Origin: Vicinamibacteria bacterium
GTDB taxonomy: Bacteria > Acidobacteriota > Vicinamibacteria > Marinacidobacterales > Marinacidobacteraceae
Assembly (NCBI GenBank): GCA_964291235.2
Contig: OZ219815.1
Location: 160,001 to 224,000, forward strand
DNA length: 64,000 nucleotides
Reading direction: 5' to 3'
Shown: positions 5,401 through 20,908 of the stretch, in pieces
Layout: every line of letters starts with the position of its first letter
Position numbering within the stretch: position 1 is the stretch's first letter
Made by a program: the position numbers and the translations under genes
Notes under the pieces: generated by a model
What the model saw: the letters and a program-made list of their open reading frames with translations, nothing else
Told to the model about the DNA's origin: nothing
Databases searched by the model: none

Positions 5401-6660
5401 TCAGTGGTCAACGGTGCGTAATGGCCGGTGTCGCCAGAGCAGCCAGTTCAGGAAGGTCGCCACCGCAGCCATCGCCACCACGATTCCAAAGGCCCCGTCC
5501 CAACCGTGAGCATCGATCAGATACCCCATCCCGACCCCCGTGAAGATCGCGCCCGCCGCTCCGATCCCGTCCACGATTCCGGAGGCGGAAGCCGAGGCTT
5601 TTGTCCCCCCGAAGTCCATCACCATGGCTCCCGACATCAGGGAATAGGGGCCGTAGAGCGTGAAGCCCACGAGCCCAAGCGCCGCTGCCAGCCAGAGGCT
5701 CTCCTCGGCCGGCAATCGGCTGAACAGGTAGATGGAGAGCGTGAGCACGACGCTCATGATCGCAAGCACCGGCCCCCGCCCGGCACCCACCCGGTCGGAA
5801 ACCCACCCGGCGGTTATGGAGCCCGCCGAACCGAGCAGCGGGAAAACTGCCGAGGCGGCGGCCGCGGCGCCGATCCCGGCGCCCGCCTGCACCAGGTAAT
5901 CCACCGACCATCCCCAGAAGGTGTAGCGGATCACGGAGAGCAACAGATAGCTTGTGCACATGATCCAAAACGCCGGGCTCGCCAGCATCCGGCGGCGCAA
6001 GCCGCCCCCCTGCCCGCTCCCGGCAACCGGATCGCGGAGCGTTTCCGGAGGCGCGGGAGCTGGCGGCGCGGCGGGCGGATCCGGCCGGATGAGGCGGTAG
6101 AGCGCGAGCCCGAGCAAAGCCAGCAGGCCGGCGTGCGCCCAAAAAAGTCCGGACCAGCCAAGCGCCACGACCAACACCGCGGCCGAAGCGCGGGCGGCGA
6201 AGTCGCCGAGCTGGTAGCTGATCGACATGAACCCCATCACCCGGCCGCTCTCCCGGCTGGGGTACCAGCGGGCCATGATCGGCATGATGGCCAGCCAGCC
6301 CATCGTCTGGAAATACGCGTTGACGCCCCAGACCGCGACGAAGAAGAGGAGTTCCCGGCCGAAACCGAAGACCGCGTTCATGAGCACGGAACCGAAGACG
6401 CCGATGAAGAACATCGCCTTGCCCCCGATGCGGTCACCGAGGAATCCGTTCAGAAGTTTCGACGCCGCGTACACCGCGAAGTACACCGACAGGATCAGCC
6501 CGGTCTCGGTGCTGGAATAGTCAAAGGCCTCCCCGATCAACGGTAGGGCCACCGGGAGCGTGACGCGGCCCAGGTAGTACCCCGCGTAGGCGACGAACAG
6601 GAGCACCGTCAGCAGCAGGCGCTGCCGCCCAAAACCCGGTGACTCCGCGACGCCCCTCAC
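5401..6660 (-). CDS. MFS transporter, organophosphate:Pi antiporter (GlpT/UhpC-like) family
   Basis: About 12 hydrophobic segments; YAGYYLGR, GFLGDRIG, WYPSRESG, GWVSDR; 15 bp upstream of the racemase gene. Confidence 0.85.
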   Translation of the reverse strand: MRGVAESPGFGRQRLLLTVLLFVAYAGYYLGRVTLPVALPLIGEAFDYSSTETGLILSVYFAVYAASKLLNGFLGDRIGGKAMFFIGVFGSVLMNAVFGFGRELLFFVAVWGVNAYFQTMGWLAIMPIMARWYPSRESGRVMGFMSISYQLGDFAARASAAVLVVALGWSGLFWAHAGLLALLGLALYRLIRPDPPAAPPAPAPPETLRDPVAGSGQGGGLRRRMLASPAFWIMCTSYLLLSVIRYTFWGWSVDYLVQAGAGIGAAAAASAVFPLLGSAGSITAGWVSDRVGAGRGPVLAIMSVVLTLSIYLFSRLPAEESLWLAAALGLVGFTLYGPYSLMSGAMVMDFGGTKASASASGIVDGIGAAGAIFTGVGMGYLIDAHGWDGAFGIVVAMAAVATFLNWLLWRHRPLRTVDH

Positions 6661-7169
6661 CTCAGCGCCCGCCGAGTTCGATCAATGCTTCCATCCGCGG
6701 GGGTGGGTCCCAACCGGTGCGTTCGGAGTGAGAAGAGGCCAGCCGCTAACAGCCCGTGGACGAGGTGGCGTGAGCACCGAGGCCCCGCCGGGGCACTGCC
6801 CTGCAAGAGGTGCGGCTGACCCAGTTCTCGCGGCGGCGCCAGACAGAGGAAGCCCTGGCGTACTTCGACCGAAGCGCAACGACGAGTGAAGCAAGGGCAA
6901 GCGGTTCAGCCGGTATGTTTGTTGGTCCAACGCCACCTCACCTCGTTTACAGGCTGTTCTCGCCGTGGAGCCGCAGGGCTGGCGGCCTCTCAATTACACT
7001 AGCCCCGGTTGCGGGGGAGGAATGTGGGGGGAGGAGAGTCTTGGTTCCGGCTGACTCCAGCCGCTCCACCCCCTCCGTCCCGACCACCGCTGACGGGGAC
7101 GCAACGCCCGGGTCGCCTTCTTCATCCTCCGCAGGCGCGAAGATCCGGCGTCGCAGATTCGAGTGAACT

Positions 7170-8252
7170 ATGAAATCCGGAACCAGGCCAGGACCAGCCA
7201 TGCGGCCCACCGGGCAAATCCGTGAACTGTCCGATGGGCTGAGAAGCGCGTTCGACGGATCGAACGTCAAGGACCGGGTGCAGGACTTCGAAGGATGGAC
7301 CGACCGGGCGTCCCACGCAGATTCCACCCGGGAGTACGACCACACGCGGACCGTCAGGGAGTACTACGACCTCTGTACCGAGTTCATGGTCTGGGGCTGG
7401 GGAGAATCCCTGCACTTTGCGCCGCTGTCGCCTTTCGAGAGCTTGGAGGACTCGAAGATCAGGCACCAGAGAGTCATGATCTCCAAACTCGACCTGCGTC
7501 CGGACATGACGGTGATTGATGTCGGCTGCGGGATCGGCGGTCCGATGCGCCGCGTCGCCCGTGAGGCCGGAGTCAGGGTTGTCGGGATCAACGCCAGTGA
7601 AGTCCAGAGCAACAAGGCCAGGCAATTGAACACCGCTGCGGGACTCGATGACATGACCGAATGTCTGCAATGCAGCTTCATGGACATGAGTGCGATCGCG
7701 GACGAGACCTTCGACCGTGGCTACGCGATCGAATCAACCTGCCATGCGGCCGACAAGGTGGGCGCGTTCGCCGAAATCTACCGTGTCCTGAAGCCCGGAG
7801 CTCTCTTCTGGGGCCAGGAAATGTGCATGACGGACATCTACGACCCGGGCAGCGACCAGCAACGCGCCATCAAGCGGGAGCTCATGCACGGCATCGCGCT
7901 CAAGGACATCGCGACGTTCGGCGAGGTGCATCGGGCGCTCGAAACCGCCGGATTCGAAGTCGTGGAGGGGGCGGATCTCGCCATCGGTCAACAGCGTCCG
8001 CACACGCCGTGGTATCAGCCCATGGAAACGCGGCGCGGGCTGCCCGGGAGCACTTTCCGCCGGATTCCGGTGGGTCGCAGGGCGACGGGGTGGGGAATCA
8101 GGATAGCGGAGTTCCTCGGTGTGTTCCCGAAGGGCTCGGCGGAGGTGGTCGCACTGCTGGATCGGACCGCAAACGCCTATGTCGCGGGGGGCAGGACGGG
8201 AATCTTCACACCGCTTTACTGCTTCGTGGCGCGCCGGCCTCTTTCGGGTTAG
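7170..8252 (+). CDS. smt: Sterol 24-C-methyltransferase (ERG6/SMT-like)
   Basis: YYDLCTEF..WGWGESLHFAP (region I), DVGCGIGGP (SAM binding), YAIESTCHA (region III), YRVLKPG, C-terminal GGRTGIFTPLYCFVARRP typical of the SMT C-terminal domain; start may be ATG7200. Confidence 0.88.
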   Translation: MKSGTRPGPAMRPTGQIRELSDGLRSAFDGSNVKDRVQDFEGWTDRASHADSTREYDHTRTVREYYDLCTEFMVWGWGESLHFAPLSPFESLEDSKIRHQRVMISKLDLRPDMTVIDVGCGIGGPMRRVAREAGVRVVGINASEVQSNKARQLNTAAGLDDMTECLQCSFMDMSAIADETFDRGYAIESTCHAADKVGAFAEIYRVLKPGALFWGQEMCMTDIYDPGSDQQRAIKRELMHGIALKDIATFGEVHRALETAGFEVVEGADLAIGQQRPHTPWYQPMETRRGLPGSTFRRIPVGRRATGWGIRIAEFLGVFPKGSAEVVALLDRTANAYVAGGRTGIFTPLYCFVARRPLSG

Positions 8253-8289
8253 CCCCGCCCACCTGGGGGCTCTTCCCCCCGCGCGCCCG

Positions 8290-11200
8290 TCAACCGGACG
8301 CCTCGCTGGCCAGTTCTCGCCGCGCCGAGGTCAGGCGCAGATGGAACGAGGAAAGCGCGGGCACCAGAAACACGATGAGGACCGTGGTGAAGACGATGCC
8401 GCAGCCGATCGAGGCGGAGAAGGGAACGAAGAACTGCGCCTGAATCGCGTCTTCGAGAATCAGGGGCGTGAAGCCGAGAAAGGTCGTCAGGGACGTCAGC
8501 ATGATCGGGCGGAAACGCCCCTTCGCACCCTCGATGATCGCGGTTCGCGCCGGGACGCCGTCCCGGAGTTTCTGATCGGTGAAATCGATCATCACCAGGG
8601 AATCGTTCACCACCACGCCGGCGAGGCCGAAGATCCCGACAAAGGATTGCGCGCTCACGGCTACCCCCAGCACCCAGTGACCCAGGATCACGCCGATGAA
8701 CCCGAACGGGATGATGGCCATGACGATGAACGGTTTGGTGTAGGAGCGCAGGGGGATGGCCAGCAGCGCGAAGATCATGAGCAGCGCGATCACGAATCCC
8801 CGATAGAGACCGCCCAGAGAGTCGAGTTGCTGCTGCTGTTCCCCTCCGAAGGTGTACGTGAGATCCGGGTTCTCGGCGATGAGCCCCGCCAGGATGGTGT
8901 TCTCGAGAATGTCATTGGCGGTCCCGGCGGAAATCACACTGGGATCGACGTCAGCGCTCACCGTGACCACGCGCTGGCCGTCCTGGCGCCGGATGGCCGG
9001 CGGGGAGGTGCCCGAACTCAGGGAAGCCACCCGGCTTATCGGCACGTCGGCGCCGGCTGGCGTCCGGAGCCGGTAACTTTCAACGTCGGTGATCGAGTTC
9101 CGCTGCTCCTCGGGCAGCCGGACGTAAACCCGAACTTCGTCACGTCCTCGCTGCACCCGGACGGCTTCCGCGCCAAAGAAGGCGGCTCGCGTCTGCCACG
9201 CAAGGTCGTCAAGCGTCAGGCCGAAGGTGCGCGCTTCGGGGAGCATTCCCACTTGGATCTCCGGGATGCCGGGAGTGTGATCCGAGCGGATGTCGAAGAC
9301 GCCGCCGACTCCGCCGAGATCTGCGACAGTGGAACTCGCGATCTCGTTGAGGCGTTCCGGATCCGGGTGGGACAGCGCGGCTTCGAGCGGGTTTCCCAGG
9401 GTGAAGATCTGGCTGAAGAAGGTGACCGCCCGCGCCTGAGGCAGGACACCCACCTCCTCACGCCATGCCTGGACGACATCTCCCGAAGTGATGCGCCGCT
9501 GCTGCGCACTCAGGAGCTTGAACTCGATGGTGGCGAGTTTGGCTTCCGGGTTCAGGGTGGGAGAGGGGTTGAGCCCCCCGGTCTCGATTCGAGACCGCCG
9601 ACCGACGACGACCGTAACGCCGGACAGCAGCGGAGGCGCATCCGCGGACCGGCCTTCGGAAAGCCGCTCGATGGCCCTGCGACCGGCCACTTCGAGTTCC
9701 TGCGCCACGGCGTACGTTTGCCGCGCGGTTGTGCCGTCCGGCATCTCGAGCGTGGCGATTGCGAAATCGCCTTCGACCTCGGTCGTGAAGACGGCCGGGA
9801 CGATGCCGGCGGGAATGAGCGAAACGCTCAGGATGAGCAGCGCCACGGCCCCCGAGACCGTTACCCCGGGCCAGTCCGTCGCGAACTGGATCCCGCGATC
9901 CAGCGGCCCTTGGACAAAGCTGTTCAGCAGTGAATCGACACGATTCTGGATTCGGGCGACGAATCGTTCGAAGCGCGTGCCGGGAACCCAATCCGGGCCG
10001 TGCAGATGATGGGACAGGTGGTTGGGCAGCACCAGCAGCGATTCGGCCAACGAAAACAGCAGCATGGCAATGACGATGATCGGCAGCGCCTTCCAGACCT
10101 CGCCGAACCCTGCAGGTATGAAGAGCAGGGGAACGAACGCCACGATCGTCGTCAGCACCGCGAAGATCAGCGGCACCTTGATGCGTCTCGCCCCCCGGAT
10201 TGCCGCCACGACCCCCTGCGCACCGCGCCTTCGTTCGAGGTGGATGTGCTCCGACACGACGATCGCATCGTCCACGACGATGCCGATGGCGAGTACGAAA
10301 GAGAAGAGCGACACCGCGTGGAGCGGAATGTCGAACACCAACATGGCGGCCAGCGCGCCGATTCCGGAAACGCCGAGACCGACGGCGACCCAGAAAGCCA
10401 GCCGGAGTTGGAGGAAAAGACCCAGCGCGAGCAGGACCAGCAACAGCCCCAAGGCCCCATTCTTGAGGAGTAGGGTGGCGCGCTCCACAAAGGTCGAAGA
10501 GTCGTCGAGCCAGATGTTGATGCCCACGCCGTCAGGGAGCATGGGGATCGCCTCGTTCGTGACGTAGCCGCGCACCGCGCGCGCCAAATCCATCACCTTC
10601 TCGCCGTCGGCTCGCGAGATGTCGACGAACACGGCAGGGTGGCCCTCGTGCCGGACGATCAGACCGGCGTCCTGGAAGCCGTCGCGCACCTCGGCAATGT
10701 CACCCAGGCGCACAACGGTGCCGTCGTCGTGCCCGAGGATGACGATGTCCTCGAAATCCTGCTGGTCGTAACTCTGACCGAGGGTCCGAATCCGCACCTG
10801 GGACTGCTCGGTATCGATGCTCCCCGCGGACAGGTCCAGGGAACCTCGGCGAATCGTATTGGCGATGTCGGTCAGCGTGAGCCCAAGAGCCCGCAACCGC
10901 TCCAGCGGCACCTCGATCGAGATCTCGTAGTTGCGCACCCCGCTGGTAGCGACCTGGGACACGTTGGGGAGCGCGGCGAGATCGTCCTCGATACGGTAGG
11001 CGAGTTCCTTCAGCGAGCGTTCGGGAACGTCGCCGTAGAGGATGAGGCGCATTGTGCTCTCGGCGTTCGTCATTTCCCGGATCTGCGGCCGCTCGGCACC
11101 TCCCGGGAAGGTCTGGATCCGCGCGACCGCCGACTCGATTTCATCCTTCTTGGCGTCCATGTCCGTCCCCGAGTTCACTTCGACCCTGACGGACGCCATC

Positions 11201-11493
11201 CCCGGGGCCGCTATGGAGCGGACCGCCTTCACGTCGGCCAGTCCCCGGACCTGATCCTCGATCTTGACGACGATGGCCTCCTCCACCTCTTCGGGCGTCG
11301 CGCCGGGAAACGGCACCGAGATTTCGAACTGGTTGAAGGGCACCGTGGGCCACCCTTCCTGCTCGAGGCCGGTCAGCGACACCAGGCCCACGGCGAGGAT
11401 GCCGAACATCAGCAGATTGGACGCGACGCCGTTGCTCGCCATGTAGGCGATCGGTCCGCGGGGTTCGGCGTGGTTGCCTCGGTCGGAACTCAT
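8290..11493 (-). CDS. RND efflux permease (AcrB/AcrD/AcrF family)
   Basis: ~1067 aa; PGATPEEVE, GIVVDDAIVVSE, RFRPIMLTSLTT; two large periplasmic loops. Confidence 0.93.
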   Translation of the reverse strand: MSSDRGNHAEPRGPIAYMASNGVASNLLMFGILAVGLVSLTGLEQEGWPTVPFNQFEISVPFPGATPEEVEEAIVVKIEDQVRGLADVKAVRSIAAPGMASVRVEVNSGTDMDAKKDEIESAVARIQTFPGGAERPQIREMTNAESTMRLILYGDVPERSLKELAYRIEDDLAALPNVSQVATSGVRNYEISIEVPLERLRALGLTLTDIANTIRRGSLDLSAGSIDTEQSQVRIRTLGQSYDQQDFEDIVILGHDDGTVVRLGDIAEVRDGFQDAGLIVRHEGHPAVFVDISRADGEKVMDLARAVRGYVTNEAIPMLPDGVGINIWLDDSSTFVERATLLLKNGALGLLLVLLALGLFLQLRLAFWVAVGLGVSGIGALAAMLVFDIPLHAVSLFSFVLAIGIVVDDAIVVSEHIHLERRRGAQGVVAAIRGARRIKVPLIFAVLTTIVAFVPLLFIPAGFGEVWKALPIIVIAMLLFSLAESLLVLPNHLSHHLHGPDWVPGTRFERFVARIQNRVDSLLNSFVQGPLDRGIQFATDWPGVTVSGAVALLILSVSLIPAGIVPAVFTTEVEGDFAIATLEMPDGTTARQTYAVAQELEVAGRRAIERLSEGRSADAPPLLSGVTVVVGRRSRIETGGLNPSPTLNPEAKLATIEFKLLSAQQRRITSGDVVQAWREEVGVLPQARAVTFFSQIFTLGNPLEAALSHPDPERLNEIASSTVADLGGVGGVFDIRSDHTPGIPEIQVGMLPEARTFGLTLDDLAWQTRAAFFGAEAVRVQRGRDEVRVYVRLPEEQRNSITDVESYRLRTPAGADVPISRVASLSSGTSPPAIRRQDGQRVVTVSADVDPSVISAGTANDILENTILAGLIAENPDLTYTFGGEQQQQLDSLGGLYRGFVIALLMIFALLAIPLRSYTKPFIVMAIIPFGFIGVILGHWVLGVAVSAQSFVGIFGLAGVVVNDSLVMIDFTDQKLRDGVPARTAIIEGAKGRFRPIMLTSLTTFLGFTPLILEDAIQAQFFVPFSASIGCGIVFTTVLIVFLVPALSSFHLRLTSARRELASEASG

Positions 11494-11560
11494 CGGCAAG
11501 GGGCGGGGCGGATCCAGAAATGCGCTCGCGTGTCGGTCGCGCGGCTATCGGCCTCCGCGC

Positions 11561-13582
11561 TCACACGGGATTCGGGATTTGCGCGACCCGGAACTTCAGT
11601 TTCCGGTTCGGGGCCAGGGTCGGGAACGGATTGATGCCCAGCTTGTAGTTGTCGGGCGCCACTTCAAGCTGCAGGTGATACGCGATGAGCAGGACGTTCA
11701 CGGCCATCTGAAGCTCCACCCACCGATGGCCGAGGCACATGTGCGTACCCAGGCCGTAGGGCGCATAGGCGCCCGGTTGCAAATGTTCCGCCCGGTCCGG
11801 GAGGTACCGATCGATGTCGAACTTCAGGGGATCCTTGTACAAGTCATCGGAATAGTGCGGCACCGTCTGGCAAATCAATGCCATCGTCTTCGTCGGTATC
11901 CCGTATCCACTGACAACGCACTCGTTCATGACCGTTCTCAACTGCCAGGGAATCACTGGATACATACGCGAGGATTCCATGCAGAGACGAACCGTGACGT
12001 CGACGCTGTCGTGACTGAAATCATCGTCCTTCGGTTCACGACCGTTACCGAAGAGCGACTCCGCCTCACTACGGATCCTCGCGTACACCTCCGGGTTGCG
12101 AACCATGTTGTACACCGCGAAGGCGAGTCCGCTGCCGAGGTAGATGCTGGCAACCATGGCCGCCACGAACGGAAACGTAAGGTCGGTTTCGGGCAAGAAC
12201 TGTGGATCGCTCTTGTGGAGCTCGAGAAGCGCATCGGCGATGTCCCGGGGCTTCCCCTTGCGCTGGGCCGGCGTGTGTGATGCCGTGATCGCCTCCTGGA
12301 GGCTCTTGACATGCCTTCCGTAGCGTTTCATTCTCGGCGTGGACAGCATGAAATCCGGCAAGGCGCCCTGAACCCGCGTTACCAGCGCGCGGTGTTCAAA
12401 AGCCAGCAACTCGTCCACATAGTGGCTGCAGTCCACTCCCATCGTGAGGTGCGAGATCTGACTGCTGATGTGGTGTTGAAAGCTCTCGGTGCCGCGGAAG
12501 ATGTCCCCCTGTTGCCACCGGCCCAGCGACTTGCGGCAGTCGTCGATCAGCTCCGGTAGTCGCCGCGCCAACGTGGCCCGGGAATACGCGCTCTGGAGCG
12601 ACTTTCGCATTCGATAGTGTTCGGCCCCATCCATTCCCGGCAGGCTCCGGGAGGCTCCGAATGCACGTTCCAGCCGCTCGATGTAGTCCTTGGAACGGAG
12701 GTAGAATCGCCCGTGCTGGTTTACCCAGCGATTGACATCCGGACCCATCAAGGCAACCACCGGCGCACCCCGGATCTTGAAGGGCATTCGGACGACGGGT
12801 CCCTGTTGTCGGTAGATACCGTGCATCGCCTTCGGGATGTTGCCCGAAAGGAAATCACGTTCCCGCAGGACACCGAGGAATCGGAGCCGCGGAATGGGTT
12901 TGGTCCGGAGAACGCGGCGGGTCTTCGGCTTCGCGGTGCTGTCCTTCACGGCGGCGGCAACCGTCCGCCCGATGAGATCCAGCCTGGCTACCAGTTCGAT
13001 GCGGTCGAGGCGCTCGTCGTAGTCCTCTTCCTCGAGCAGCATCTTGAACCCGCCACAGGTGTGCATCAGGGCCACGAGGATCGCATCGCGCGGGTCGGGT
13101 ATCTCGTCGTTCAGGATGACGCTCAGGACTCTCGTCTTGGATTCGCCGCGGGACTCGGCGGCTTGGGCCGGGTAGGTTCCCGAATGGGAGACATCGCGAG
13201 AGAGGCCCCAGAATCCGCCGGTCTGGTGCGTGAGGATGTTCCGCTCCACCAGGCGGTCGAGCGTTGCCGCCACGATCTCGTCGGTGCGGCGCGCGTTTCG
13301 TTCGATCCAGAACTGGGCGTCCGATTTCTCATCGGACTCGGCGATGTCCTTGAGCGTCGGGTCGAGCAGGTCGTCGCCGGTCGGGGTGGGGTCCACCAGG
13401 TACAGCCGTTCCAGATCGGTCTCGATGCGCCGTTCCAGCGCCAGGTCGGCGAGCACCGCTCCGGCCATGACACAGGAGAAATCCCATCCCGGAACCATTT
13501 CCAGATAGCCGCTCTGCTCGTCGAGCATCAGGAGGATCAACTCCTCGGCGATGCGGATCGGGAACTGGGTAGCCGCGCTCAT
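11561..13582 (-). CDS. GPP34 (GOLPH3/Vps74-like) domain fused to cytochrome P450
   Basis: N-terminal IAEELILLMLD...AGAVLADLAL..RI...LLD...LVERNIL...PDPRD..LVAL pattern; C-terminal ExxR (ESSR), DPLKFDIDR, PYGLGTHMCLG heme motif; GGAGG precedes ATG13582. Confidence 0.85.
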   Translation of the reverse strand: MSAATQFPIRIAEELILLMLDEQSGYLEMVPGWDFSCVMAGAVLADLALERRIETDLERLYLVDPTPTGDDLLDPTLKDIAESDEKSDAQFWIERNARRTDEIVAATLDRLVERNILTHQTGGFWGLSRDVSHSGTYPAQAAESRGESKTRVLSVILNDEIPDPRDAILVALMHTCGGFKMLLEEEDYDERLDRIELVARLDLIGRTVAAAVKDSTAKPKTRRVLRTKPIPRLRFLGVLRERDFLSGNIPKAMHGIYRQQGPVVRMPFKIRGAPVVALMGPDVNRWVNQHGRFYLRSKDYIERLERAFGASRSLPGMDGAEHYRMRKSLQSAYSRATLARRLPELIDDCRKSLGRWQQGDIFRGTESFQHHISSQISHLTMGVDCSHYVDELLAFEHRALVTRVQGALPDFMLSTPRMKRYGRHVKSLQEAITASHTPAQRKGKPRDIADALLELHKSDPQFLPETDLTFPFVAAMVASIYLGSGLAFAVYNMVRNPEVYARIRSEAESLFGNGREPKDDDFSHDSVDVTVRLCMESSRMYPVIPWQLRTVMNECVVSGYGIPTKTMALICQTVPHYSDDLYKDPLKFDIDRYLPDRAEHLQPGAYAPYGLGTHMCLGHRWVELQMAVNVLLIAYHLQLEVAPDNYKLGINPFPTLAPNRKLKFRVAQIPNPV

Positions 13583-13762
13583 CCTCTTCGACCTCCAGAT
13601 CGAGCGGCTTGAGGCCAAGCCACCAGCCCCTCTGGATGGTCCGGTTGAAATACTAGTCCATTCGCAGGCGGCCGGCGGGTCCGGATTCCCCTGGGATCAC
13701 GACCGCCATCCCCGATGGCGCGCGCCAGAAAGCTGGCCGCGCGCGTGGGTAGAGTAGAAGGC

Positions 13763-15142
13763 ATGGGTGAAGTGAAGGGCAGAACGCCGCGGAGGATTGC
13801 CATCGTGGGTGGGGGCGTCTCGGGCCTGGGGGCCGCCTGGGCGCTCCATCAGCATCCGGACCGCTTCGATTTCCGGCTGTTCGAAGCGCAGGCGCAGCTC
13901 GGCGGCAACGCGATCACCGCCGACATGCCGCAGGACGACGGAAGCACGATCCCGTTCGATATCTCCGTCACCGCCTGTATTCCGTCGGCATACCACCACT
14001 TTGTCCTGCTCATGCAGCAACACGGTATCGAGCTGATCGATACCCGGTTCAACTACAGCGTGAGGTATCGAGGCCAGACATATGCCCATGATTTCGACTC
14101 GGACATCAGGCGGCAGTTGCGGCCCGAAATCGAGAAGTTCCAGCGGCTCCTGAAACGTCTCCATTGGTGGGGGCGGCTCAACCTGTCCCGGTCCAAACTG
14201 CTCAGTGCATGCAATCCGTTCAACTACGTCAGCATGGGCGCGCTGTTGAACCTGGGCAGGTACTCGGGGGACTTCCGGTACAAGGTTCTGAAACCCATGT
14301 TCGTCAATTTCCTGATGGCGACGAACGTGTTCGACATGCCGGCGTCGCTCTTTTCTCGGTATCTGGATTTCTTCGACATCGAAACCGCGACGCCGATGCA
14401 GACGTGGGACCAGGGAACGCGGCGGATCTATCAGGAGCTCTCCGCGGCCTTCCCGGAGAAGATCTACCTGAACCGGCCCGTGCGAAAGGTTCACCGGCGC
14501 CGTACCGAAGTAGTCGTAGAGGACGAGAACGGTACGACCGAGACGTTCGATGACGTCGTTTTCGCGTGCAACGCGAACCAGACGCTGATGCTCCTGGACA
14601 AGCCGACGCGGCTGGAGGGTTGGCTCCTCTCCTCGATCCGGTACGAGAGCGAACTGCACAACCATACGGTCGTCCACTCGGACGCCTCGGTCCTTCCGGA
14701 TAATGAGGTCCAGCCATTGGCCACCCGGAGCAACCACATCGAGCAGTACGGTGCGAGGCCCGACAACTACGAAATCACCTACATCATGCACAACCAGCAG
14801 CCGTGGGCGAACAGGTCGGACAAGCCATGCCTCGTGACCTACAACCCGATCAGTCATATCGACGACAGCAAGATCGTCAAGAAGTGGTGGTTTCAGCACA
14901 TCGTGCACGACGTGCCTCACGTGACGTTTCTGACCCAGATGTTTCGCTTCGTTCAGGGCCGGAGGCGAACCTGGCACTGTGGCGCCCACACCCTGATCAA
15001 CAGCCAGGAGACCTGTTTCGTTTCCGGCCTCGTGACGGCGAGGCAGCTCGGAGCCGGCTACCCGTTCCAGGATCCTGAAGCCAGGAAATGGTTCAACTTC
15101 TACGGACGCGTGATGTACGGCTGGCGCTTCAAGGCCGCGTAG
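13763..15142 (+). CDS. FAD-dependent oxidoreductase, COG2907-like (amine-oxidase-fold desaturase/isomerase)
   Basis: IAIVGGGVSGLGAA Rossmann motif, FEAQAQLGG, FDDVVFAC, VHSDASVLP, QGRRRTWHCGA, QETCFVSG; ORF track starts at 13715. Confidence 0.8.
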   Translation: MGEVKGRTPRRIAIVGGGVSGLGAAWALHQHPDRFDFRLFEAQAQLGGNAITADMPQDDGSTIPFDISVTACIPSAYHHFVLLMQQHGIELIDTRFNYSVRYRGQTYAHDFDSDIRRQLRPEIEKFQRLLKRLHWWGRLNLSRSKLLSACNPFNYVSMGALLNLGRYSGDFRYKVLKPMFVNFLMATNVFDMPASLFSRYLDFFDIETATPMQTWDQGTRRIYQELSAAFPEKIYLNRPVRKVHRRRTEVVVEDENGTTETFDDVVFACNANQTLMLLDKPTRLEGWLLSSIRYESELHNHTVVHSDASVLPDNEVQPLATRSNHIEQYGARPDNYEITYIMHNQQPWANRSDKPCLVTYNPISHIDDSKIVKKWWFQHIVHDVPHVTFLTQMFRFVQGRRRTWHCGAHTLINSQETCFVSGLVTARQLGAGYPFQDPEARKWFNFYGRVMYGWRFKAA

Positions 15143-16157
15143 CCTCGCGATTCGCGGGCTCGGCGTAGAACTGTCGGCAGTAGCGCCGGTACATCCCGAT
15201 CTCGCCGTCGGAGCGGCACAGGCTCGGGCGCGACCGGTACCGTTTCCGGCTCCAGATCTCCACGTCCTGCCTGACGTCGTGCTTCTGGAAGGTCAGCATC
15301 AACTTGTTCATGAGGTCGGTGCGGAGGGCCGGGGGGAGGAATCTCAGCCCCACGATCGGCCGTTTCGGTTTCCTGAGCCGCCGCAACTGGCTGACCAGCA
15401 CCAGATCGATCAGCGTGCCATCGACGGGCGTCGCTAGCACCCACAGGCGCCCGTCCATTCCAATGGACCGCTCGTGGAACTCCACGAACGAATATCCGAG
15501 CCCGACGACATGGGCGGTGGCAGAGACATCGAACGCGAGATCCACGATCCCGGCGACGCTTTGCGTGCGCCTGAAGTCAAAGCTACTCACCAGATGGGCG
15601 CCGTCCACGGTTACCGCGCCGACCCGACCGACATTGCCGTAGCCGTGCACGTACCGGAGGTGCGCCATGTCCACGGCGTTCTCACTCGTTTCCTGGGGGT
15701 GTCCCCGAAACCGGAGAGTCCGGAACGCCAATTCACACCAGTCGTCCCCGCCGGAAGGCTCTTCGGGAAGGCTCCACTGAGGGGGTCGTCGGTCGATGCC
15801 CCACCAGGCGAAGACGATGCCAAGGATTTCCCGCGTCTCGAATGCCGTCAGCTTCGCGGTCTTCGGCGGCGGGGCAAAGGGAGTGGCGACGCATTGCCCG
15901 CTGACGTCGAACTCGTAGCCGTGAAAGGGACAAACAAGACGGCCATCGCGCACCCGGCCGCCGGCGGCGGGGCCCAGTTCGGACCCGAGGTGCGGACAGA
16001 CCGACTCGGCCACCGAGATCCCGCCGGCATCGTCGCACCAGGCGACGATGTTCTTTCCCATCCAGGACTTCTGGATGAGCTTCACCTTCTCCAGGGACCG
16101 CCGGGTGGCAACGAAATACCAGCCCTCCGGGTACGGAGAGAGCGTGGATTCACTCAT
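15129..16157 (-). CDS. Rieske [2Fe-2S] non-heme iron oxygenase, KshA/Neverland(DAF-36)-like sterol oxygenase/desaturase
   Basis: PYPEGWY, CPHLG...CPFHG, ENAVDMAHLRYVH, QDVEIW..K.Y...P.L...DG.I..YRRYCRQFY; the true start is ATG16157 inside the 818-aa track ORF. Confidence 0.85.
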   Translation of the reverse strand: MSESTLSPYPEGWYFVATRRSLEKVKLIQKSWMGKNIVAWCDDAGGISVAESVCPHLGSELGPAAGGRVRDGRLVCPFHGYEFDVSGQCVATPFAPPPKTAKLTAFETREILGIVFAWWGIDRRPPQWSLPEEPSGGDDWCELAFRTLRFRGHPQETSENAVDMAHLRYVHGYGNVGRVGAVTVDGAHLVSSFDFRRTQSVAGIVDLAFDVSATAHVVGLGYSFVEFHERSIGMDGRLWVLATPVDGTLIDLVLVSQLRRLRKPKRPIVGLRFLPPALRTDLMNKLMLTFQKHDVRQDVEIWSRKRYRSRPSLCRSDGEIGMYRRYCRQFYAEPANREATRP

Positions 16158-16252
16158 GCGTACTGACCGGCATTCTCGCCCAAGACTCGTAGCTCCTCCG
16201 CCGCCCCACCCGGCGGATCTGAATTCCAGGTGATCGAACTTCGCTTCGAGCG

Positions 16253-17473
16253 CTACTCCGCTGTCCGCACCCGCATTCCCTCGGTCGCGAACTGGATCCC
16301 ACCCACGACCACCTTCTGGCCGTCCTGTAGTCCACCGGTGACGTACACGTCGTCGTTGAAGCGTTGGAGCACGCGAACCGGCACAATCGTCACCGCATCG
16401 TCTCTGAGCGCCCAGACCTCGTTGCCCGGCCTGAGCGCCAGACGCCGGATCCGAAAGTACGCCTCGGGAGCGGCGCCGCCAATCTCGACATCCACAAACT
16501 GACCGACCAGCAGGGGCGGCGCCGAGAGCCCGGCCGGAGATTCGGCGCCCTCGCTCCCGTTGCGGCCCTCCACCGGGGAACCACCCACGAAGGGGTTCGG
16601 GACGCGCACGATCACATCGAGAGTCCGGGTCCCTTCGTCCACTGCCGCCTCGAATCGGTCCACGGTTCCCGCCCAGGCATAGCTGGTGGTTCCGTGCCTG
16701 GCGATGACGCGGGCTGCAACCCTGGTGTCTCCGGAGCCGGCCCGAAGTTCCCAAAGGCCCGGGATGAGCGCCGCGTCGGCGTCGGAAAGGGATACCACGA
16801 TCTCGACCGCATCGGAGGCGTAGATCGCTCCCACGCTCATTCCGGCGGTCACGAATTGCCCGACGCCCACCGTTTCGTGCCGGACTACGGCGTCGAAGGG
16901 CGCCTGGACCGCGGTCCGCGAGAGCAGGAGTTCGGCCTCCGCCAGGAGGGCGCGGTCCCGTTCCAGGGCAGCCCGCGCCGCCTCGAGTTGGGGCTCCCAC
17001 TGCGCCAGGGGACTGACGTCCGCGTTTTGTCCATCGCCCGCCCGGCTTCGGAACGCAGCGTACTGCTCCTTCGCGATCCGTGCTTCTTCCTCGACCTTCA
17101 GCAACTCGACCTGCTGGACGGCGACGCTGGCGCGCGCCTGCTCTCTCCGGTGGCGGTAGTCGGCGTCGTCGAGGCGGAAGACGACCTGGCCCTCGGTCAC
17201 CCGGCCGCCGCTTTCGAAAGCCGGATCGACCCAGACCACGCGTCCGCTCACCCCCGCGGCCACGTCCACCTGCACCCGAGGCCGCACGGTTCCGCTGCCG
17301 TACACCGGAATTGCGCCGGAGCCGGCGACCGCCGGGGCGGTGGACGCGAAGGGAATCTGCGAGGGAGGCTCCCGCCGCTCGGGTTCCGGCCGCTGGGCGA
17401 CCAGCAGGGCCGCAATCCCGAAGGATGCCAGCAGGATCGCCGCCGCCAGGACATATCCCTTGGTTCGATTCAT
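16253..17473 (-). CDS. RND periplasmic adaptor (membrane fusion protein)
   Basis: N-terminal TM; VSGRVVWV, coiled-coil hairpin, VQAPFDAVV, VGQFV, GLQDGQKVVV. Confidence 0.92.
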   Translation of the reverse strand: MNRTKGYVLAAAILLASFGIAALLVAQRPEPERREPPSQIPFASTAPAVAGSGAIPVYGSGTVRPRVQVDVAAGVSGRVVWVDPAFESGGRVTEGQVVFRLDDADYRHRREQARASVAVQQVELLKVEEEARIAKEQYAAFRSRAGDGQNADVSPLAQWEPQLEAARAALERDRALLAEAELLLSRTAVQAPFDAVVRHETVGVGQFVTAGMSVGAIYASDAVEIVVSLSDADAALIPGLWELRAGSGDTRVAARVIARHGTTSYAWAGTVDRFEAAVDEGTRTLDVIVRVPNPFVGGSPVEGRNGSEGAESPAGLSAPPLLVGQFVDVEIGGAAPEAYFRIRRLALRPGNEVWALRDDAVTIVPVRVLQRFNDDVYVTGGLQDGQKVVVGGIQFATEGMRVRTAE

Positions 17474-19017
17474 CGGTCCGTCGCTCCTTTGGCCGTGGCG
17501 CGGGATCCGTCCATCGGTGCGCGGGCGATCTCGTCCGGAGGCGTCCAGGCGCCTCCCAGGGCGCGGTGAATGGCCAAACGGGCAAGAGAGAGGTTCCGTT
17601 CGGAACCCGCGAGAGCGGATTCCACCTCCAGGAGGTTCCCGGTGGCGTCCAGCAGGTCGCGGTAGCCGCCTACCCCCGACTCGTAGCGTTCTTTCTGGAG
17701 ACCCACGGAGGCTTGCGCCTCCTCCTGCTGCGCCAGCAACGATGCGCGGCGACGGCCCTCGTTCCTCAGCGTGGCAAGGGCCGCTTCCACCTCGTTCACC
17801 GCGGTCACCACCGTCTGCCCGTAGGCAGCGGCCAGTTCGTCAAAACGGAACTCGGCCAATTCGACGCCCTTCGCCAGGCGGCCGCCGTCGAACACCGGCC
17901 GAAGCAGGTTGGACGCCAGGTTCGCGAACCACTGCTGCACGTCGAACAGCCCGCCGCCATCCGTGCTCTGGAGCCCGATGGACCCACGGAGCGAGAGTTG
18001 CGGCATCAACGCCGCGCGACGCGCTTCGGCGGCGTGGCTGGCGGCCTCCAGCCGGTGTCCCGCCGCCTGGACGTCCGGCCGCTGCGACAGGAGGTCCGCC
18101 GGGATTCCGGCCGGCACAGGATCCACGGCAAGGGCGGAAGAAAGGGAATCGGGAAGGATCGCCATCACATCCTTGCGATACCCACCAAGCAGGATCGCGA
18201 GCCCGGATTCCGCCTCGGCAAGCTGGTTCTGGATTCCGGGCATTCCGGCCTCGGCGGCCGAAAGCGCCTGGCGCACGCGGTAGAGGTCGCTCGACCTCGC
18301 GAGTCCGCGTTCGTAGCGACCCCTGACCAGCCGCTCGCGCTCCTCCAGTACCTCTACCTGCCGCCGGGTGACGGTGAGTTGCCGCCGCAAATGGCCGATC
18401 TCAAAGTAAGCCGCGATCGTCTCGGCGAGGATTCCGATACGTGCGGCCTGCAGGTCGAACTCCGAGGCGAGCAGCTCGGATCCCGCGGCGAGCGCGGTGT
18501 GACGGGCGCGGCCCCAGAAATCGGCTTCGTAGGCGAAGTCGGCGCTCAGGGAATAGGTCGGGAAACCCAGCCGGTCGGGAAGCGGAAAGTCAAGGCCGAG
18601 ATCCTCGAGCTGCGCGCCAATGGCGGCGTTGGTCGGCACGTCGAAAGCATCGACCCCGGCGCGGGCTCCGACCACCGGCAGGATCGCCGCGTCGGCCAGC
18701 CGAGCCCGCGTCCTGGCCTGTTCGACCCGGGCCACCGCTTCCGCGACGGAAAAGTTGGAAGCGAGCACCGATTCGACCACCTGGTCGAGCGCCGGATCGG
18801 CGAAGGCCCGCCACCACTCCTGCGCCCGGTAGGGGCCGGCGCCGGGAGTCTCGACGAAGTCGCTCGGCAACTCCGGAGCCGCCTCCTGCGCTGGGGCCGG
18901 AGGAGCGGATCCGGAGACCAGGGAGCAACTGCCGACACCGCCGCCGACCAGGAACACGAAGCCCCAGGCGACGCCGATGGACGCCTGGATCTTCTGGCTG
19001 TTCAATCCGAGCAACAC
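17470..19017 (-). CDS. Outer membrane efflux protein (NodT/OprM family)
   Basis: WWRAFADPALD, YEADFWGR, PADLLSQRPDV, FDGGRL, RALGGAW; ATGA overlap with the MFP gene; GGAGGAGG before GTG. Confidence 0.92.
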   Translation of the reverse strand: MLLGLNSQKIQASIGVAWGFVFLVGGGVGSCSLVSGSAPPAPAQEAAPELPSDFVETPGAGPYRAQEWWRAFADPALDQVVESVLASNFSVAEAVARVEQARTRARLADAAILPVVGARAGVDAFDVPTNAAIGAQLEDLGLDFPLPDRLGFPTYSLSADFAYEADFWGRARHTALAAGSELLASEFDLQAARIGILAETIAAYFEIGHLRRQLTVTRRQVEVLEERERLVRGRYERGLARSSDLYRVRQALSAAEAGMPGIQNQLAEAESGLAILLGGYRKDVMAILPDSLSSALAVDPVPAGIPADLLSQRPDVQAAGHRLEAASHAAEARRAALMPQLSLRGSIGLQSTDGGGLFDVQQWFANLASNLLRPVFDGGRLAKGVELAEFRFDELAAAYGQTVVTAVNEVEAALATLRNEGRRRASLLAQQEEAQASVGLQKERYESGVGGYRDLLDATGNLLEVESALAGSERNLSLARLAIHRALGGAWTPPDEIARAPMDGSRATAKGATDR

Positions 19018-19039
19018 GCCTCCTCCGGACCTGAACCCG

Positions 19040-19068
19040 AGTTTATTCCAGAGGGGGCACGGCTCGAA
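19040..19068 (-). promoter_or_regulatory. Putative sigma70-type promoter for the OMF-MFP-Rieske unit
   Basis: TTCGAG-N17-TAAACT on the minus strand shortly upstream of the OMF RBS. Confidence 0.35.
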
Positions 19069-19095
19069 ACGAGATCGGCCGGCGCGGCGGGACGA

Positions 19096-20811
19096 TCACC
19101 AGCCGGCGGCGTGGCCCTCGCGCCGTTTGTCGGGTCCGCCGGAGAGGACTCCCGAACCGGGATAGATCTTGATCGCGTTCAGCATTCCGATCCGGTTCGG
19201 CGGCTGTCGGAGACGGTGGCCCCGGGCGTTCAGAGCCTCCCGCACCTCGTCGGAGAAGTCCTTTTCCAGGACGAGATCGGTTCCGTCCATGTACGGAATC
19301 GAGTTCGCCAGGTAGCGGACCACGAAACGCGGCGCGTCCACCGCCGCCGGCGCGTCCATCTCGTAATCCAGCGCTCGCACCAGCACCTGCACGATGGTCT
19401 GGGGAATCGTCCAGCCTCCCGCCGATCCGAGCGCGAAGTAGGGCTTGCCGTAGCGGGTCACGATGGTGGGGCTCATCACGAAGCGCGGCCGCTGACCACC
19501 CTCGATGACGTTCACGTCCTCGGTATCCAGGCTGAAGTAGGACATGCCGTTGTTGAAGATGATCCCGGTCTCGGGCACCACCACTCCCGCCGGAAGCATG
19601 AGCGTCTGGGTGATCGTCACCACGTTGTGGTCCTTGTCCACCACGGTGTGGTGGGTGGTGTGCTCGACCGCGGTGGGCAGGTCGTTCGTGGAGTGGACCG
19701 CCGCGTGAAACCGGGCGCGCGACGGGTCGATCCGGGCCGCCTGTTCGGCCGCGTATTCCTTGGAGAGCAGCCGGTCGAGCGGGATCCGGGCGTAGTCCTT
19801 CCCGGTGTTGTAGGCGTCCTCGTCCACGAAGGCGAGCTTCATGGCCTCCGAGACCAGGTGGACGAACTCCTCGGAGTTGTGTTCGAGCGCCGGCACATCG
19901 AACTGCTCGAGGATGTTCAGCGTCTGGAGAACGGTCATCCCCGAGCCGCCCGGCGGCTGGCTGTAAACCGTGTGGCCCCGGTAGGTAGTCGAGAGCGGTT
20001 CGCTCCAGCGAGCCCGATAGTTCTGGAAGTCCTCCACGGTGAGGATGCCGCCGTTTTGTCGGAAAAAGTCCACGACGGTCTCCGCCAGCCTTCCGCCGTA
20101 GAACACTTCCGGCCCGTCCGCGGCGATCGCCCTGAAGGTCTTCGCCAGGTCGGGCTGTTTCAGGATCTCGCCCACCGGCCAGGGCTTGCCGGCCTCGAAG
20201 AAGATGCTGGCGCCGTAGGGGTAGCGCGCCACGTCGGCGCCGAACCCACTGGTTCCAAAGGAGCCGTTCACCGCGGGGGTGACCGCAAAACCCCCCTCGG
20301 CGTATTCGATCGCCGGAGCCAGGACTTCGGCCCAGGACATCGAGCCGTACTCCTCGAGAAGCGCCGTCCAGCCGGCGAGGTTTCCGGGAACGAGCGGCGC
20401 CAGGAAGCTGTCGCGGGCGGGGTGGGTCCGGTCCCAGAGCTGGCTCCCCGCGGTAAACGCTTCGGGATCCGCCGCCGCTGGAGCCGCGCCGATGAAGTCC
20501 ACCGACCGGATGTCCCCCGTTTTTGCGTCGTGGATCAGGGCGTAGCCCCCGACGCCGCCGAGCCCGGACATCAGCGGTTCCACGACCGCTTTCACGGCCG
20601 CGCTCGCCACCGCGGCGTCGAAGGCGTTCCCGCCTGCCTGGAGCATGCGAAGCCCGGCCTGCGCCGCGAGCGGATGAGAGGTCACCACCATCCCGTTGAC
20701 GCTCATCCCGGCGCCTTCGGCGGGCTCGCGTAGCGAGGACGCGAGCAGCAGCGGGAGCCCCAGCAGCGGAGCCGCCCAGATGAGGGAGATTCGCCGTTTC
20801 GCGCGCATCAT
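19096..20811 (-). CDS. ggt: Gamma-glutamyltransferase
   Basis: GMVVTSHPLA, GGNAFDAAV, QPPGGSG, HTTH Thr nucleophile, FNNGM, GSAGG, DKRREG; signal peptide after ATG20811. Confidence 0.92.
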   Translation of the reverse strand: MMRAKRRISLIWAAPLLGLPLLLASSLREPAEGAGMSVNGMVVTSHPLAAQAGLRMLQAGGNAFDAAVASAAVKAVVEPLMSGLGGVGGYALIHDAKTGDIRSVDFIGAAPAAADPEAFTAGSQLWDRTHPARDSFLAPLVPGNLAGWTALLEEYGSMSWAEVLAPAIEYAEGGFAVTPAVNGSFGTSGFGADVARYPYGASIFFEAGKPWPVGEILKQPDLAKTFRAIAADGPEVFYGGRLAETVVDFFRQNGGILTVEDFQNYRARWSEPLSTTYRGHTVYSQPPGGSGMTVLQTLNILEQFDVPALEHNSEEFVHLVSEAMKLAFVDEDAYNTGKDYARIPLDRLLSKEYAAEQAARIDPSRARFHAAVHSTNDLPTAVEHTTHHTVVDKDHNVVTITQTLMLPAGVVVPETGIIFNNGMSYFSLDTEDVNVIEGGQRPRFVMSPTIVTRYGKPYFALGSAGGWTIPQTIVQVLVRALDYEMDAPAAVDAPRFVVRYLANSIPYMDGTDLVLEKDFSDEVREALNARGHRLRQPPNRIGMLNAIKIYPGSGVLSGGPDKRREGHAAGW

Positions 20812-20908
20812 TCCGCCTCCTCCTGGAGAGAGCCGCCGGGAAGCTCCCGAAACGGCCGATGGTCCATCATAAGCACCTGGCGGAGGTGAGTAAGGATTCA
20901 CCCGACCG

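Follow-up and report, generated by a model that had tools for sequence, protein, structure and literature searches.

What use does a bacterium without the genes for sterol synthesis make of a methyltransferase of the sterol C-24 type, and whose sterols would it act on? The question is raised by seven contiguous genes in a stretch of 64,000 nucleotides, called the window below, from a Vicinamibacteria bacterium of the phylum Acidobacteriota (assembly GCA_964291235.2, contig OZ219815.1, positions 160,001 to 224,000 of the forward strand). They encode a protein of the sterol C-24 methyltransferase (SMT) type, a permease belonging to the RND (resistance-nodulation-division) superfamily, a fusion of a GPP34 domain with a cytochrome P450, a flavoprotein, a Rieske non-heme-iron oxygenase, a periplasmic adaptor (membrane fusion protein, MFP) and an outer-membrane factor (OMF). 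A first-pass annotation, made from the letters of the window, had proposed a cassette for the remodelling and export of exogenous sterol. Searches with Pfam profiles and their family cut-offs, together with some NCBIfam models, recovered all seven genes with the domains named there. From their content, distribution and genomic setting we consider it rather probable that they form a horizontally spread island of sponge-associated bacteria, which tailors external (host or dietary) sterols and moves them outward.

The seven genes are grouped far beyond chance: the set recurs across phyla, and among members of the genus it comes and goes as a unit. A scan with the SMT against one genome per prokaryote species returned 291 relatives, and the best 80 were taken with 10-kb flanks. 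Cassette partners in these loci were called by tblastn with the window proteins (E <= 1e-20, identity of 40% or more, alignment to half of the query or more); 64 of the 80 loci, each at least 20 kb long, count as full. By the record titles, which are those of metagenome-assembled genomes (MAGs), the loci belong to Chloroflexota/Dehalococcoidia (44), Acidobacteriota (21), Gemmatimonadota (9), Gammaproteobacteria (2), Alphaproteobacteria (2), Latescibacterota (1) and Rhodothermales (1), and many of them lie on contigs of 3-6 Mb. The synteny expected by the first-pass annotation was found: the GPP34-P450 gene adjoins the SMT gene in 53 of the 64 full loci (63 of all 80). The Rieske gene accompanies it in 52 (56 of all 80), the flavoprotein gene in 32 (35 of all 80) and the AcrB-type permease gene in 22 of the full loci. 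Taken together, transporters of the AcrB-type RND and MMPL kinds occur in 52 full loci, or in 54 if the second MMPL type described below is added. The exact gene order of the window recurs in at least five Acidobacteriota-labelled loci, and the permease genes found in loci labelled Acidobacteriota, Gemmatimonadota and Gammaproteobacteria always lie beside that of the SMT.

Compared with the window proteins, the SMTs share 66-81% identity, the permeases 82-90%, the flavoproteins 70-90% and the Rieske oxygenases 55-88%; the P450 reaches 70-85% in Acidobacteriota-labelled loci and 42-47% elsewhere. SMT relatives at 66-81% identity carry the labels of five or more phyla, and such identities far exceed what vertical descent between phyla would leave. 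Additionally, 32 metagenome contigs from JGI and other sources, many of them short, were inspected. The P450 gene lies beside the SMT gene in 17 of these, and one contig (L123) is 93-95% identical to the window. A FastTree phylogeny of the SMTs covers the window and 79 of the 80 loci (L033 was omitted because its ORF (open reading frame) of 682 aa failed the clustering rule). Its rows group mostly by phylum label, with short branches (0.08-0.16) between the groups. The Gammaproteobacteria and Latescibacterota rows fall within the Gemmatimonadota group and the Rhodothermales row within the Acidobacteriota group; some of these odd placements could be binning errors. Three loci (L058, L065, L084) sit on a long branch, where probably another SMT-like ORF was taken. 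The tree topology fits a small number of transfers between phyla followed by spread within them.

Within the genus, presence and absence follow the island as a whole. In the codes used here for the compared genomes, G000 denotes the own genome. Of 15 same-genus genomes, the same 10 have an SMT ortholog (77-82% identity), a P450 ortholog (85-87%) and a Rieske oxygenase ortholog (84-87%). Four others (G001, G004, G008, G013) contain none of the three, and in G002 (66% complete) there is only a fragment of the Rieske gene where a contig ends. No P450 or Rieske ortholog was found in any of the 16 genomes of the order's two other families, the unpublished G033 included. The genes that flank the island are 12.85 kb apart in the island-bearing G009 and 1.8-2.6 kb apart in the four island-free genomes, whose homology to the window ends at ~6917 and ~19077-19098. 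These sites (L106-L109) are filled by the gene of a putative esterase of ~570 aa. Two of them retain remnants, which are ~270 bp of the 5' end of the OMF gene in G004 and 347 bp of the 5' end of the permease gene in G008. Empty sites with remnants of this kind indicate that the island was lost or replaced whole, pump genes included.

The base composition also sets the island apart. Its G+C content of 64.8% compares with 68.2% for the genome, where 2.9% of windows of 12.2 kb are as low. Among its genes, those of the enzymes are lowest (60.4-63.2%); the MFP gene has 69.2%, and MFP and OMF together stand at the genome level (69%). These two genes are also the least conserved of the island between phyla. 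Composition and conservation give the enzymes and the permease the look of imports, and MFP and OMF may have resided in the genome for longer. A repeat search over the island gave short, chance-like repeats only; no terminal repeats, integrase or transposase were seen. Some relatives have a second gene of this fusion: G006 has two nearby GPP34-P450 genes (G006:C8:50243-55878) with 87% and 74% identity to that of the window, and G011, G012 and G015 carry a second copy elsewhere in the genome at 35-36% identity.

Assignment to sterols starts from the SMT. The protein contains the Sterol_MT_C domain (PF08498, 65 bits versus a cut-off of 21.7, residues 295-357) and the class-I S-adenosylmethionine (SAM) methyltransferase domains Methyltransf_11, _25 and _31, with a glycine-rich SAM motif in the translation. 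Motifs that we take to be the region I (aromatic, sterol-binding) and region III of the SMT literature are visible by eye in the translation. A delta-24 sterol would be the putative substrate. Eight of ten sponge-symbiont SMTs assayed in vitro by Brown et al. (2023) methylated desmosterol (PMC10070321).

The GPP34-P450 protein combines both domains (119.7 and 115.8 bits) in one uninterrupted frame, and its GPP34 domain is the only one in the own genome. The heme-cysteine and ExxR motifs are present in the P450 domain; 66 of 66 homologous ORFs retain the heme motif, so that selection on the P450 as an enzyme can be concluded. Compared with solved structures, a family profile of the P450 domain matches CYP51 best (109 bits, the next at 90.9). 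These 109 bits, and the 74.7 bits scored by the single protein, fall short of orthology to CYP51. An AlphaFold model of the whole fusion was too poor (pLDDT 59.6, pTM 0.39, residues 296-480 below 50) and was not used.

The Rieske oxygenase shows Rieske (53.4 bits) and KshA_C (PF19298, 92.2 bits versus a cut-off of 23.3) domains. Its motifs CxH...CxxH and DxxHxxxxH are seen in the translation and are invariant in an alignment of 26 relatives. The AlphaFold model has a pLDDT of 82.6, and the top six Foldseek matches in the PDB are KshA chains with TM scores of 0.77-0.79 over 333-347 columns. The earlier assignment as KshA-like is thereby supported over the whole length by the predicted structure. 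Identity to KshA is 22-25%, the sequence match is restricted to residues 9-171, and the SdmA model (NF052579) gives 34.5 bits versus a cut-off of 600, in the Rieske domain only. By its predicted structure the enzyme is KshA-like in fold, yet neither KshA nor SdmA. The cholesterol 7-desaturases Neverland/DAF-36, to which the first-pass annotation had likened it as well, are relatives of KshA, and a specific tie of the window enzyme to Neverland would be conjectural. Among the best 120 of 1923 relatives (E <= 1e-10), which share 65-87% identity and are named 'Rieske 2Fe-2S domain-containing protein' or similar, no characterised enzyme was found.

The flavoprotein matches Amino_oxidase (62.6 bits) and NAD_binding_8 and shows a GxGxxG motif; its best solved relative is LkcE with 95 bits over the full length. 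A protein of G009 whose gene precedes a DUF1365 gene and also adjoins a CFA-synthase-like gene shares 27% identity with it over residues 27-446 (E 3.5e-31), and a protein of G035, likewise encoded ahead of DUF1365, matches too. DUF1365 is the UfaO family, and in the same pathway of furan fatty acid synthesis UfaD is reported to desaturate only the methyl-branched product of the methylase UfaM (PMC7380195). UfaM and UfaD likewise pair a SAM-dependent olefin methyltransferase with a flavoprotein of the amine-oxidase fold. In contrast to that pair, the identity here is just 27%, the own genome contains neither UfaO/DUF1365 nor a paralog of the flavoprotein, and the methyltransferase is of the sterol type. 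By analogy, the flavoprotein may introduce or move a double bond next to the methyl branch that the SMT creates. Some cassettes do without it: in four sequencing runs (X15, X17, X20, X22) contigs join 13585 to 15166 with 30 other letters, connecting the P450 gene start to the Rieske gene end with no flavoprotein gene between them, and locus L029 does likewise.

The sterol would have to be supplied to the organism. The assembly comprises 3.45 Mb in two contigs and is 90.3% complete, and a genome-wide search gave no match to the squalene/oxidosqualene cyclase, squalene epoxidase or FA_hydroxylase families. The lack of cyclase and epoxidase that the first-pass annotation had noted for the window therefore holds for the whole genome, which is unable to make sterols or hopanoids. 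Any sterol must come from outside, and to this extent the exogenous source proposed earlier is borne out. Two genes of the ERG4/ERG24 sterol-reductase type are present elsewhere in the genome (151.9 and 137.9 bits). One, the first in Table 1, has an overlap with the end of a short-chain dehydrogenase gene. The other shares 69% identity with a cassette-adjoining copy in a Chloroflexota-labelled locus, and in six loci with this label ERG4/ERG24 genes lie just past the flavoprotein gene. The 15 same-genus genomes have no real cyclase either, partial matches of 34 bits having appeared in seven of them.

A more varied picture emerged from 42 other cassette genomes, of unstated completeness, that were searched for both enzymes. 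Squalene epoxidase occurs in three, each time beside a cyclase of ~190 bits, and these genomes are likely sterol producers. A cyclase at 375-490 bits was found in 19 genomes, two of the three with epoxidase among them; two further genomes show a 78-bit match only and 20 have no cyclase. Three of four high-scoring cyclases sampled contain the motif DxDDTA, which we take to be that of squalene-hopene cyclases. Since 39 of the 42 genomes lack the epoxidase and about half lack a cyclase, the cassette cannot depend on endogenous sterol or hopanoid.

While the enzymes of the cassette are kept, its transporter differs from group to group. The window permease matches ACR_tran with 499.8 bits over 10-1016 of 1021 profile positions, has 12 hydrophobic segments and finds its best solved relatives among multidrug pumps (236 bits). 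With the MFP (TIGR01730, 145.8 bits versus a cut-off of 94.9) and the OMF (two OEP domains, 128.9 bits; TIGR01845, 268.5 bits versus a cut-off of 210) a tripartite RND efflux system of permease, periplasmic adaptor and outer-membrane factor is complete. All ORFs of the 80 loci were clustered, and AcrB-type permeases were absent from the Chloroflexota-labelled loci, 33 of which encode an MMPL protein of 827 aa directly upstream of the SMT. It contains Sterol-sensing (3.6e-14) and Patched (4.7e-12) domains, and its best solved relative is Patched-1, followed by MmpL3/4/5 and HpnN. A second MMPL type with a sterol-sensing domain, accompanied by a LolA-like lipid carrier, was found in L022, L027, L074 and L081 and on two metagenome contigs; Alphaproteobacteria-labelled loci are among its carriers.

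The transporters in these Chloroflexota and Alphaproteobacteria forms of the cassette are MMPL proteins, as are BstA and HpnN. BstA, the sterol-binding transporter of Methylococcus, is reported as an MMPL protein encoded beside sterol genes (PMC10942540). The Bst system of Methylococcus capsulatus and HpnN resemble the island in that a transporter of the RND superfamily is encoded beside sterol-modifying genes, and they are thought to move a polycyclic lipid from the inner to the outer membrane (PMC10942540). Unlike Bst, the pump of the window is a tripartite AcrB/MFP/OMF system rather than an MMPL protein, and the organism does not synthesize the lipid. The own genome has no true MMPL gene, and genes like BstB or BstC were not found. 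We rate the island as akin to bacterial sterol gene clusters with an RND transporter.

Contigs from four runs labelled sponge metagenome, which stem from four studies of one year, cover all 30 bins of the island at a likeness of at least 80%. Pieces from such runs are ~93-95% like the island; one of 1552 nt has 81 differences and another of 1422 nt has 102. All four runs also contain the form lacking the flavoprotein gene. Among named records the nearest are MAGs, and no host appears in their titles. Related observations have been made separately in sponge symbionts. An enrichment of SMT in Ircinia symbionts was reported by Kelly et al. (2022). Brown et al. (2023) described functional sponge-symbiont SMTs, and clusters with a cyclase, sdmA and sdmB (PMC10070321). 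Like the island, these clusters come from uncultured sponge-associated bacteria and combine a methyltransferase carrying Sterol_MT_C with Rieske-type sdmA homologs. They are read in that report as de novo synthesis with a cyclase, in contrast to the island, whose genome has neither cyclase nor epoxidase and whose partners differ as well (GPP34-P450, a Rieske oxygenase of KshA instead of SdmA type, flavoprotein, pump). Host-acquired sterols are raised there for Chlamydiae only, and the main text uses none of the terms P450, Rieske and transporter (PMC10070321). On scaffold L140, which bears the same metagenome name as JGIcombinedJ30088_10000835 of Brown et al., the SMT is 62% identical to that of the window and no P450 gene lies within 10 kb.

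Our literature searches found no paper linking SMT and GPP34-P450, although the supplements of PMC10070321 and PMC11706023 might show parts of the set. A query on GPP34, sterol and symbiont together gave one unrelated paper, and one on a sponge symbiont sterol P450/Rieske gene cluster found no publication on this set. The view of the first-pass annotation that the gene set is undescribed as a unit is in line with these searches; functional sponge-symbiont SMTs and the GPP34-P450 fusion have each been published before.

The sterol reading is preferred because an SMT, an oxygenase of KshA fold, a P450 nearest to CYP51, sterol reductases and transporters of lipid or sterol type co-occur in bacteria with different envelopes. 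The substrates, the chemistry, the order of the steps and the destination of the product are what we infer from this gene content. External sterol would partition into the inner membrane, where the SMT would alkylate C-24 of a side-chain double bond. The UfaD/LkcE-like flavoprotein, if present, could then introduce a double bond into the side chain adjacent to this branch, or move one there, as UfaD acts after UfaM. Hydroxylation or desaturation of the side chain or a ring might fall to the KshA-type Rieske oxygenase and to the P450, which its GPP34 domain would keep at the membrane; both would draw on general ferredoxin/reductase partners encoded elsewhere. The ERG4/ERG24-type reductases could reduce sterol double bonds. 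The tripartite RND pump, co-transcribed with the two oxygenases, would finally carry the product to the outer membrane or outside the cell. The product may go to the host or into the bacterium's own envelope.

Several observations weigh against the tailoring of external sterols. The island contains no uptake system; a ferredoxin or reductase as redox partner is absent from it as well, and none was searched for elsewhere. The window permease shows no match to a sterol-sensing domain, and drug export is the classical task of AcrB-type pumps. Half of the full loci lack the flavoprotein, and in 11 of the 64 the SMT stands without the P450. MAG taxon labels are possibly wrong for single contigs. 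SMT-like enzymes can methylate non-sterol isoprenoids, such as the triterpenes in the case of the Botryococcus methyltransferases, and in the cyclase-bearing genomes an endogenous triterpenoid could serve as substrate.

The last two points lead to an island acting on a lipid other than a sterol, be it hopanoids or other triterpenoids, sponge terpenoids, or unsaturated fatty acids in the manner of UfaM and UfaD. The SMT also matches the cyclopropane-fatty-acid-synthase domain CMAS with 62.8 bits, and the flavoprotein is distantly related to one adjoining DUF1365/UfaO. The high-scoring cyclases of 19 of the 42 cassette genomes, being presumably of squalene-hopene type in most of those sampled, would fit a hopanoid substrate, but 20 of these genomes have no cyclase and the own genome has neither cyclase nor DUF1365. 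The SMT moreover possesses the Sterol_MT_C domain and the SMT-type motifs, its partners are sterol-linked from the sterol-sensing-domain transporter and ERG4/ERG24 to the KshA-fold enzyme and the CYP51-nearest P450, and sponge-symbiont SMTs do methylate sterols in vitro (PMC10070321). Overall, we regard a non-sterol substrate as unlikely.

Steroid catabolism or detoxification, in which the KshA-like enzyme and the P450 would attack host steroids for nutrition, or would disarm toxic steroidal or terpenoid metabolites of the host for the pump to expel, is suggested by the sponge-only clusters of divergent KshA homologs that Holert et al. (2018) read as steroid catabolism (PMC5790920). The KshA fold of the Rieske oxygenase is in line with this, as is the habit of AcrB-type pumps to expel toxic compounds. 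The window enzyme shares with KshA the Rieske and KshA_C domains and the iron-ligand motifs. Its setting is different, with no KshB reductase or degradation genes nearby (no search for KshB or KstD was made), and the genome encodes one full KshA_C protein. A BphC/HsaC-type extradiol dioxygenase (TIGR03213), the family within which HsaC presumably falls, is absent from the own genome and not above cut-off in 17 genomes, while KstD and the other Hsa genes were not part of the search. HsaC-like NCBIfam models found nothing among the neighbours at 26.6-31 kb, a Glyoxalase-family protein included. We also know of no steroid degradation route (9,10-seco pathway) with a carbon-adding methyltransferase. 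This makes catabolism or detoxification an improbable explanation on the whole; detoxification as such is indistinguishable from tailoring and export with these data.

The GPP34 domain has so far been seen in another light. The fusion with P450, termed GPP34_L, was described from sponge (and coral) symbionts only, in 16 or more phyla; it is expressed in Aplysina aerophoba and occurs in 85.5% of 76 Acidobacteriota symbiont genomes (PMC11706023, Microbiome 2025). GPP34_L has the same two-domain architecture as the window protein, GPP34 followed by P450, and was proposed as a secreted effector of phagocytosis. Accordingly, it would bind host phosphatidylinositol-4-phosphate (PI4P) and block phagosome maturation, its neighbours being unrelated or co-selected symbiosis genes. 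Homology to GOLPH3/Vps74 speaks for this: a profile of 20 N-terminal domains matches GOLPH3 (3kn1) with E 6.6e-8 and 35 bits. GOLPH3 contacts PI4P through W81, R90, R171 and R174, and R90L abolishes binding (PMC3596250). At the corresponding positions of the weak 35-bit alignment the bacterial family has V, then A/I/V/M, an absent stretch, and I; an invariant W lies three positions after the site aligned to W81. The PI4P-binding residues of GOLPH3 appear not to be conserved in the fusion, an assignment which, given the weak alignment, is not final.

The genomic context also disagrees with an effector, as the window gene lies in a pump operon, 61 bp ahead of the permease gene, with the SMT in the same cassette, and the P450 is linked to SMT and Rieske oxygenase across phyla. 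The heme motif kept in all 66 ORFs would not be expected either. By a crude scan the protein has no N-terminal hydrophobic segment, though some secretion systems need none. GPP34 fusions with a Rieske domain (2 genomes) and with an ABC ATPase (5 genomes), reported in the same study, suit a module that docks enzymes and transporters better than they suit an effector. In the main text of that study the words sterol, methyltransferase, RND, MMPL and lipid are all absent (PMC11706023). A secreted effector therefore seems very unlikely to us, and GPP34 would rather be a membrane-docking or lipid-handing module. Tentatively, and with some doubt, the GPP34-P450 can be seen as the membrane-docked oxygenase of a pathway that turns host sterols into unconventional side-chain sterols, which are returned by RND or MMPL transporters.

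De novo sterol synthesis has in its favour that 13 of 24 tested metagenomic SMTs share a cluster or a MAG with an oxidosqualene cyclase (PMC10070321) and that, in G020 of another genus of the same family, a 42%-identical SMT paralog lies directly beside a true cyclase (182 bits, G020:C1:2172755-2174693). It was rejected as close to refuted for this genome (90.3% complete), in which cyclase, epoxidase and FA_hydroxylase genes are missing, as a real cyclase is from the 15 same-genus genomes and the epoxidase from all but 3 of the 42 cassette genomes. The G020 cluster is of the de novo type of Brown et al. and distinct from the island.

Two gene models of the first-pass annotation had to be corrected. 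The flavoprotein is encoded on the plus strand (Table 1), the overlapping minus-strand ORF at 13697-14989 matching no family, and the Rieske gene is confined to its own frame instead of an 818-aa frame running through the MFP gene. The G+C content of the window is 65-71%, and G+C by codon position singles out one clear gene per stretch. The GPP34-P450 frame extends to 13618, where TTG is a possible alternative start. Four transcription units result instead of a single one: SMT (+), P450-RND (-), flavoprotein (+) and OMF-MFP-Rieske (-). Because the pump genes are split over the second and the fourth of these, each pump operon includes an oxygenase. The permease gene follows the P450 gene in the same direction after a gap of 61 bp, and the OMF and MFP genes overlap by 4 bp. 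The flavoprotein gene points away from the P450 gene and converges on the Rieske gene, the ends of these two overlapping by 14 bp, and the SMT gene is convergent with that of the permease. In a crude hydropathy scan all four enzymes lack an N-terminal hydrophobic segment, which places the chemistry in the cytoplasm or at the inner face of the membrane; MFP and OMF have an N-terminal anchor. A promoter and terminator scan of 6600-19200 gave 0 promoter-like and 7 terminator-like sites, not above shuffled sequence.

Table 1. Features of the island, its flanks and the sterol-reductase-like genes; positions are those of the window unless a genome and contig code is given.
Feature	Position	Strand	Remarks
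Island as insertion/deletion unit	6920-19090	.	~12.2 kb, between MFS and gamma-glutamyltranspeptidase genes
SMT (sterol C-24 methyltransferase type)	7170-8252	+	360 aa; Sterol_MT_C
RND permease, AcrB/HAE1 type	8290-11499	-	1069 aa; ACR_tran
GPP34-P450 fusion	11561-13582	-	673 aa from likely ATG at 13582; GPP34 + p450 in single frame
Flavoprotein, amine-oxidase / COG2907-like group	13715-15142	+	475 aa; Amino_oxidase
Rieske non-heme-iron oxygenase, KshA type	15129-16157	-	342 aa; Rieske + KshA_C
Periplasmic adaptor (MFP)	16253-17473	-	406 aa; HlyD_3, TIGR01730
Outer-membrane factor (OMF), NodT type	17470-19017	-	515 aa; OEP, TIGR01845
Flank: major facilitator superfamily (MFS) transporter gene	5401-6660	-	no tie to lipids
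Flank: gamma-glutamyltranspeptidase gene	19096-20931	-	no tie to lipids
ERG4/ERG24-type gene (L102)	G000:C1:294547-295596		outside window
ERG4/ERG24-type gene (L103)	G000:C2:1855712-1856770		outside window

A proline racemase gene is another unrelated gene in the flanks of the island. Further P450 genes were met in the own genome. An ORF of 389 aa in the window (53689-54858, minus strand) has a C-terminal P450 match only (54 bits), and another match lies just beyond the window end (G000:C1:227586-228128). Two tandem full-length P450 genes (253 and 280 bits) at G000:C1:863170-868690 (L104:7170-12690) come before a gene of the radical-SAM type and one for a halogenase-like FAD protein, and this group may be a separate tailoring cluster. 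Also encoded in the window (36891-40103, minus strand) is a 1070-aa protein with Sortilin-Vps10 and BNR repeats, a eukaryote-like domain type often reported from sponge symbionts.

The island ties three separate published observations, namely symbiont SMTs, the GPP34-P450 fusion and the sponge-only KshA homologs, into one testable pathway, and its four enzymes are small, soluble and ready for expression. A testable biochemical role is thereby given to two signature gene sets, the GPP34-P450 that was read as a phagosome effector and the KshA-like genes that were read as catabolism. The survey further points towards new bacterial sterol transporters of three architectures. If the tailoring of external sterols is true, symbionts of at least five phyla that are unable to make sterols would produce unconventional side-chain sterols, multiply alkylated ones included. 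Alkylated side-chain steranes, above all 24-isopropylcholestane, serve as evidence of early sponges. An ability of symbiont enzymes to form these side chains has been reported, framed mainly as de novo bacterial synthesis (PMC10070321). The island suggests a commoner route, in which symbionts without sterol synthesis carry a conserved, mobile kit for alkylation, oxidation and transport. Sponge sterols may then be partly reworked by resident bacteria, and 'sponge' sterols as well as fossil steranes would be joint products of host and symbiont, made by way of a mobile gene set.

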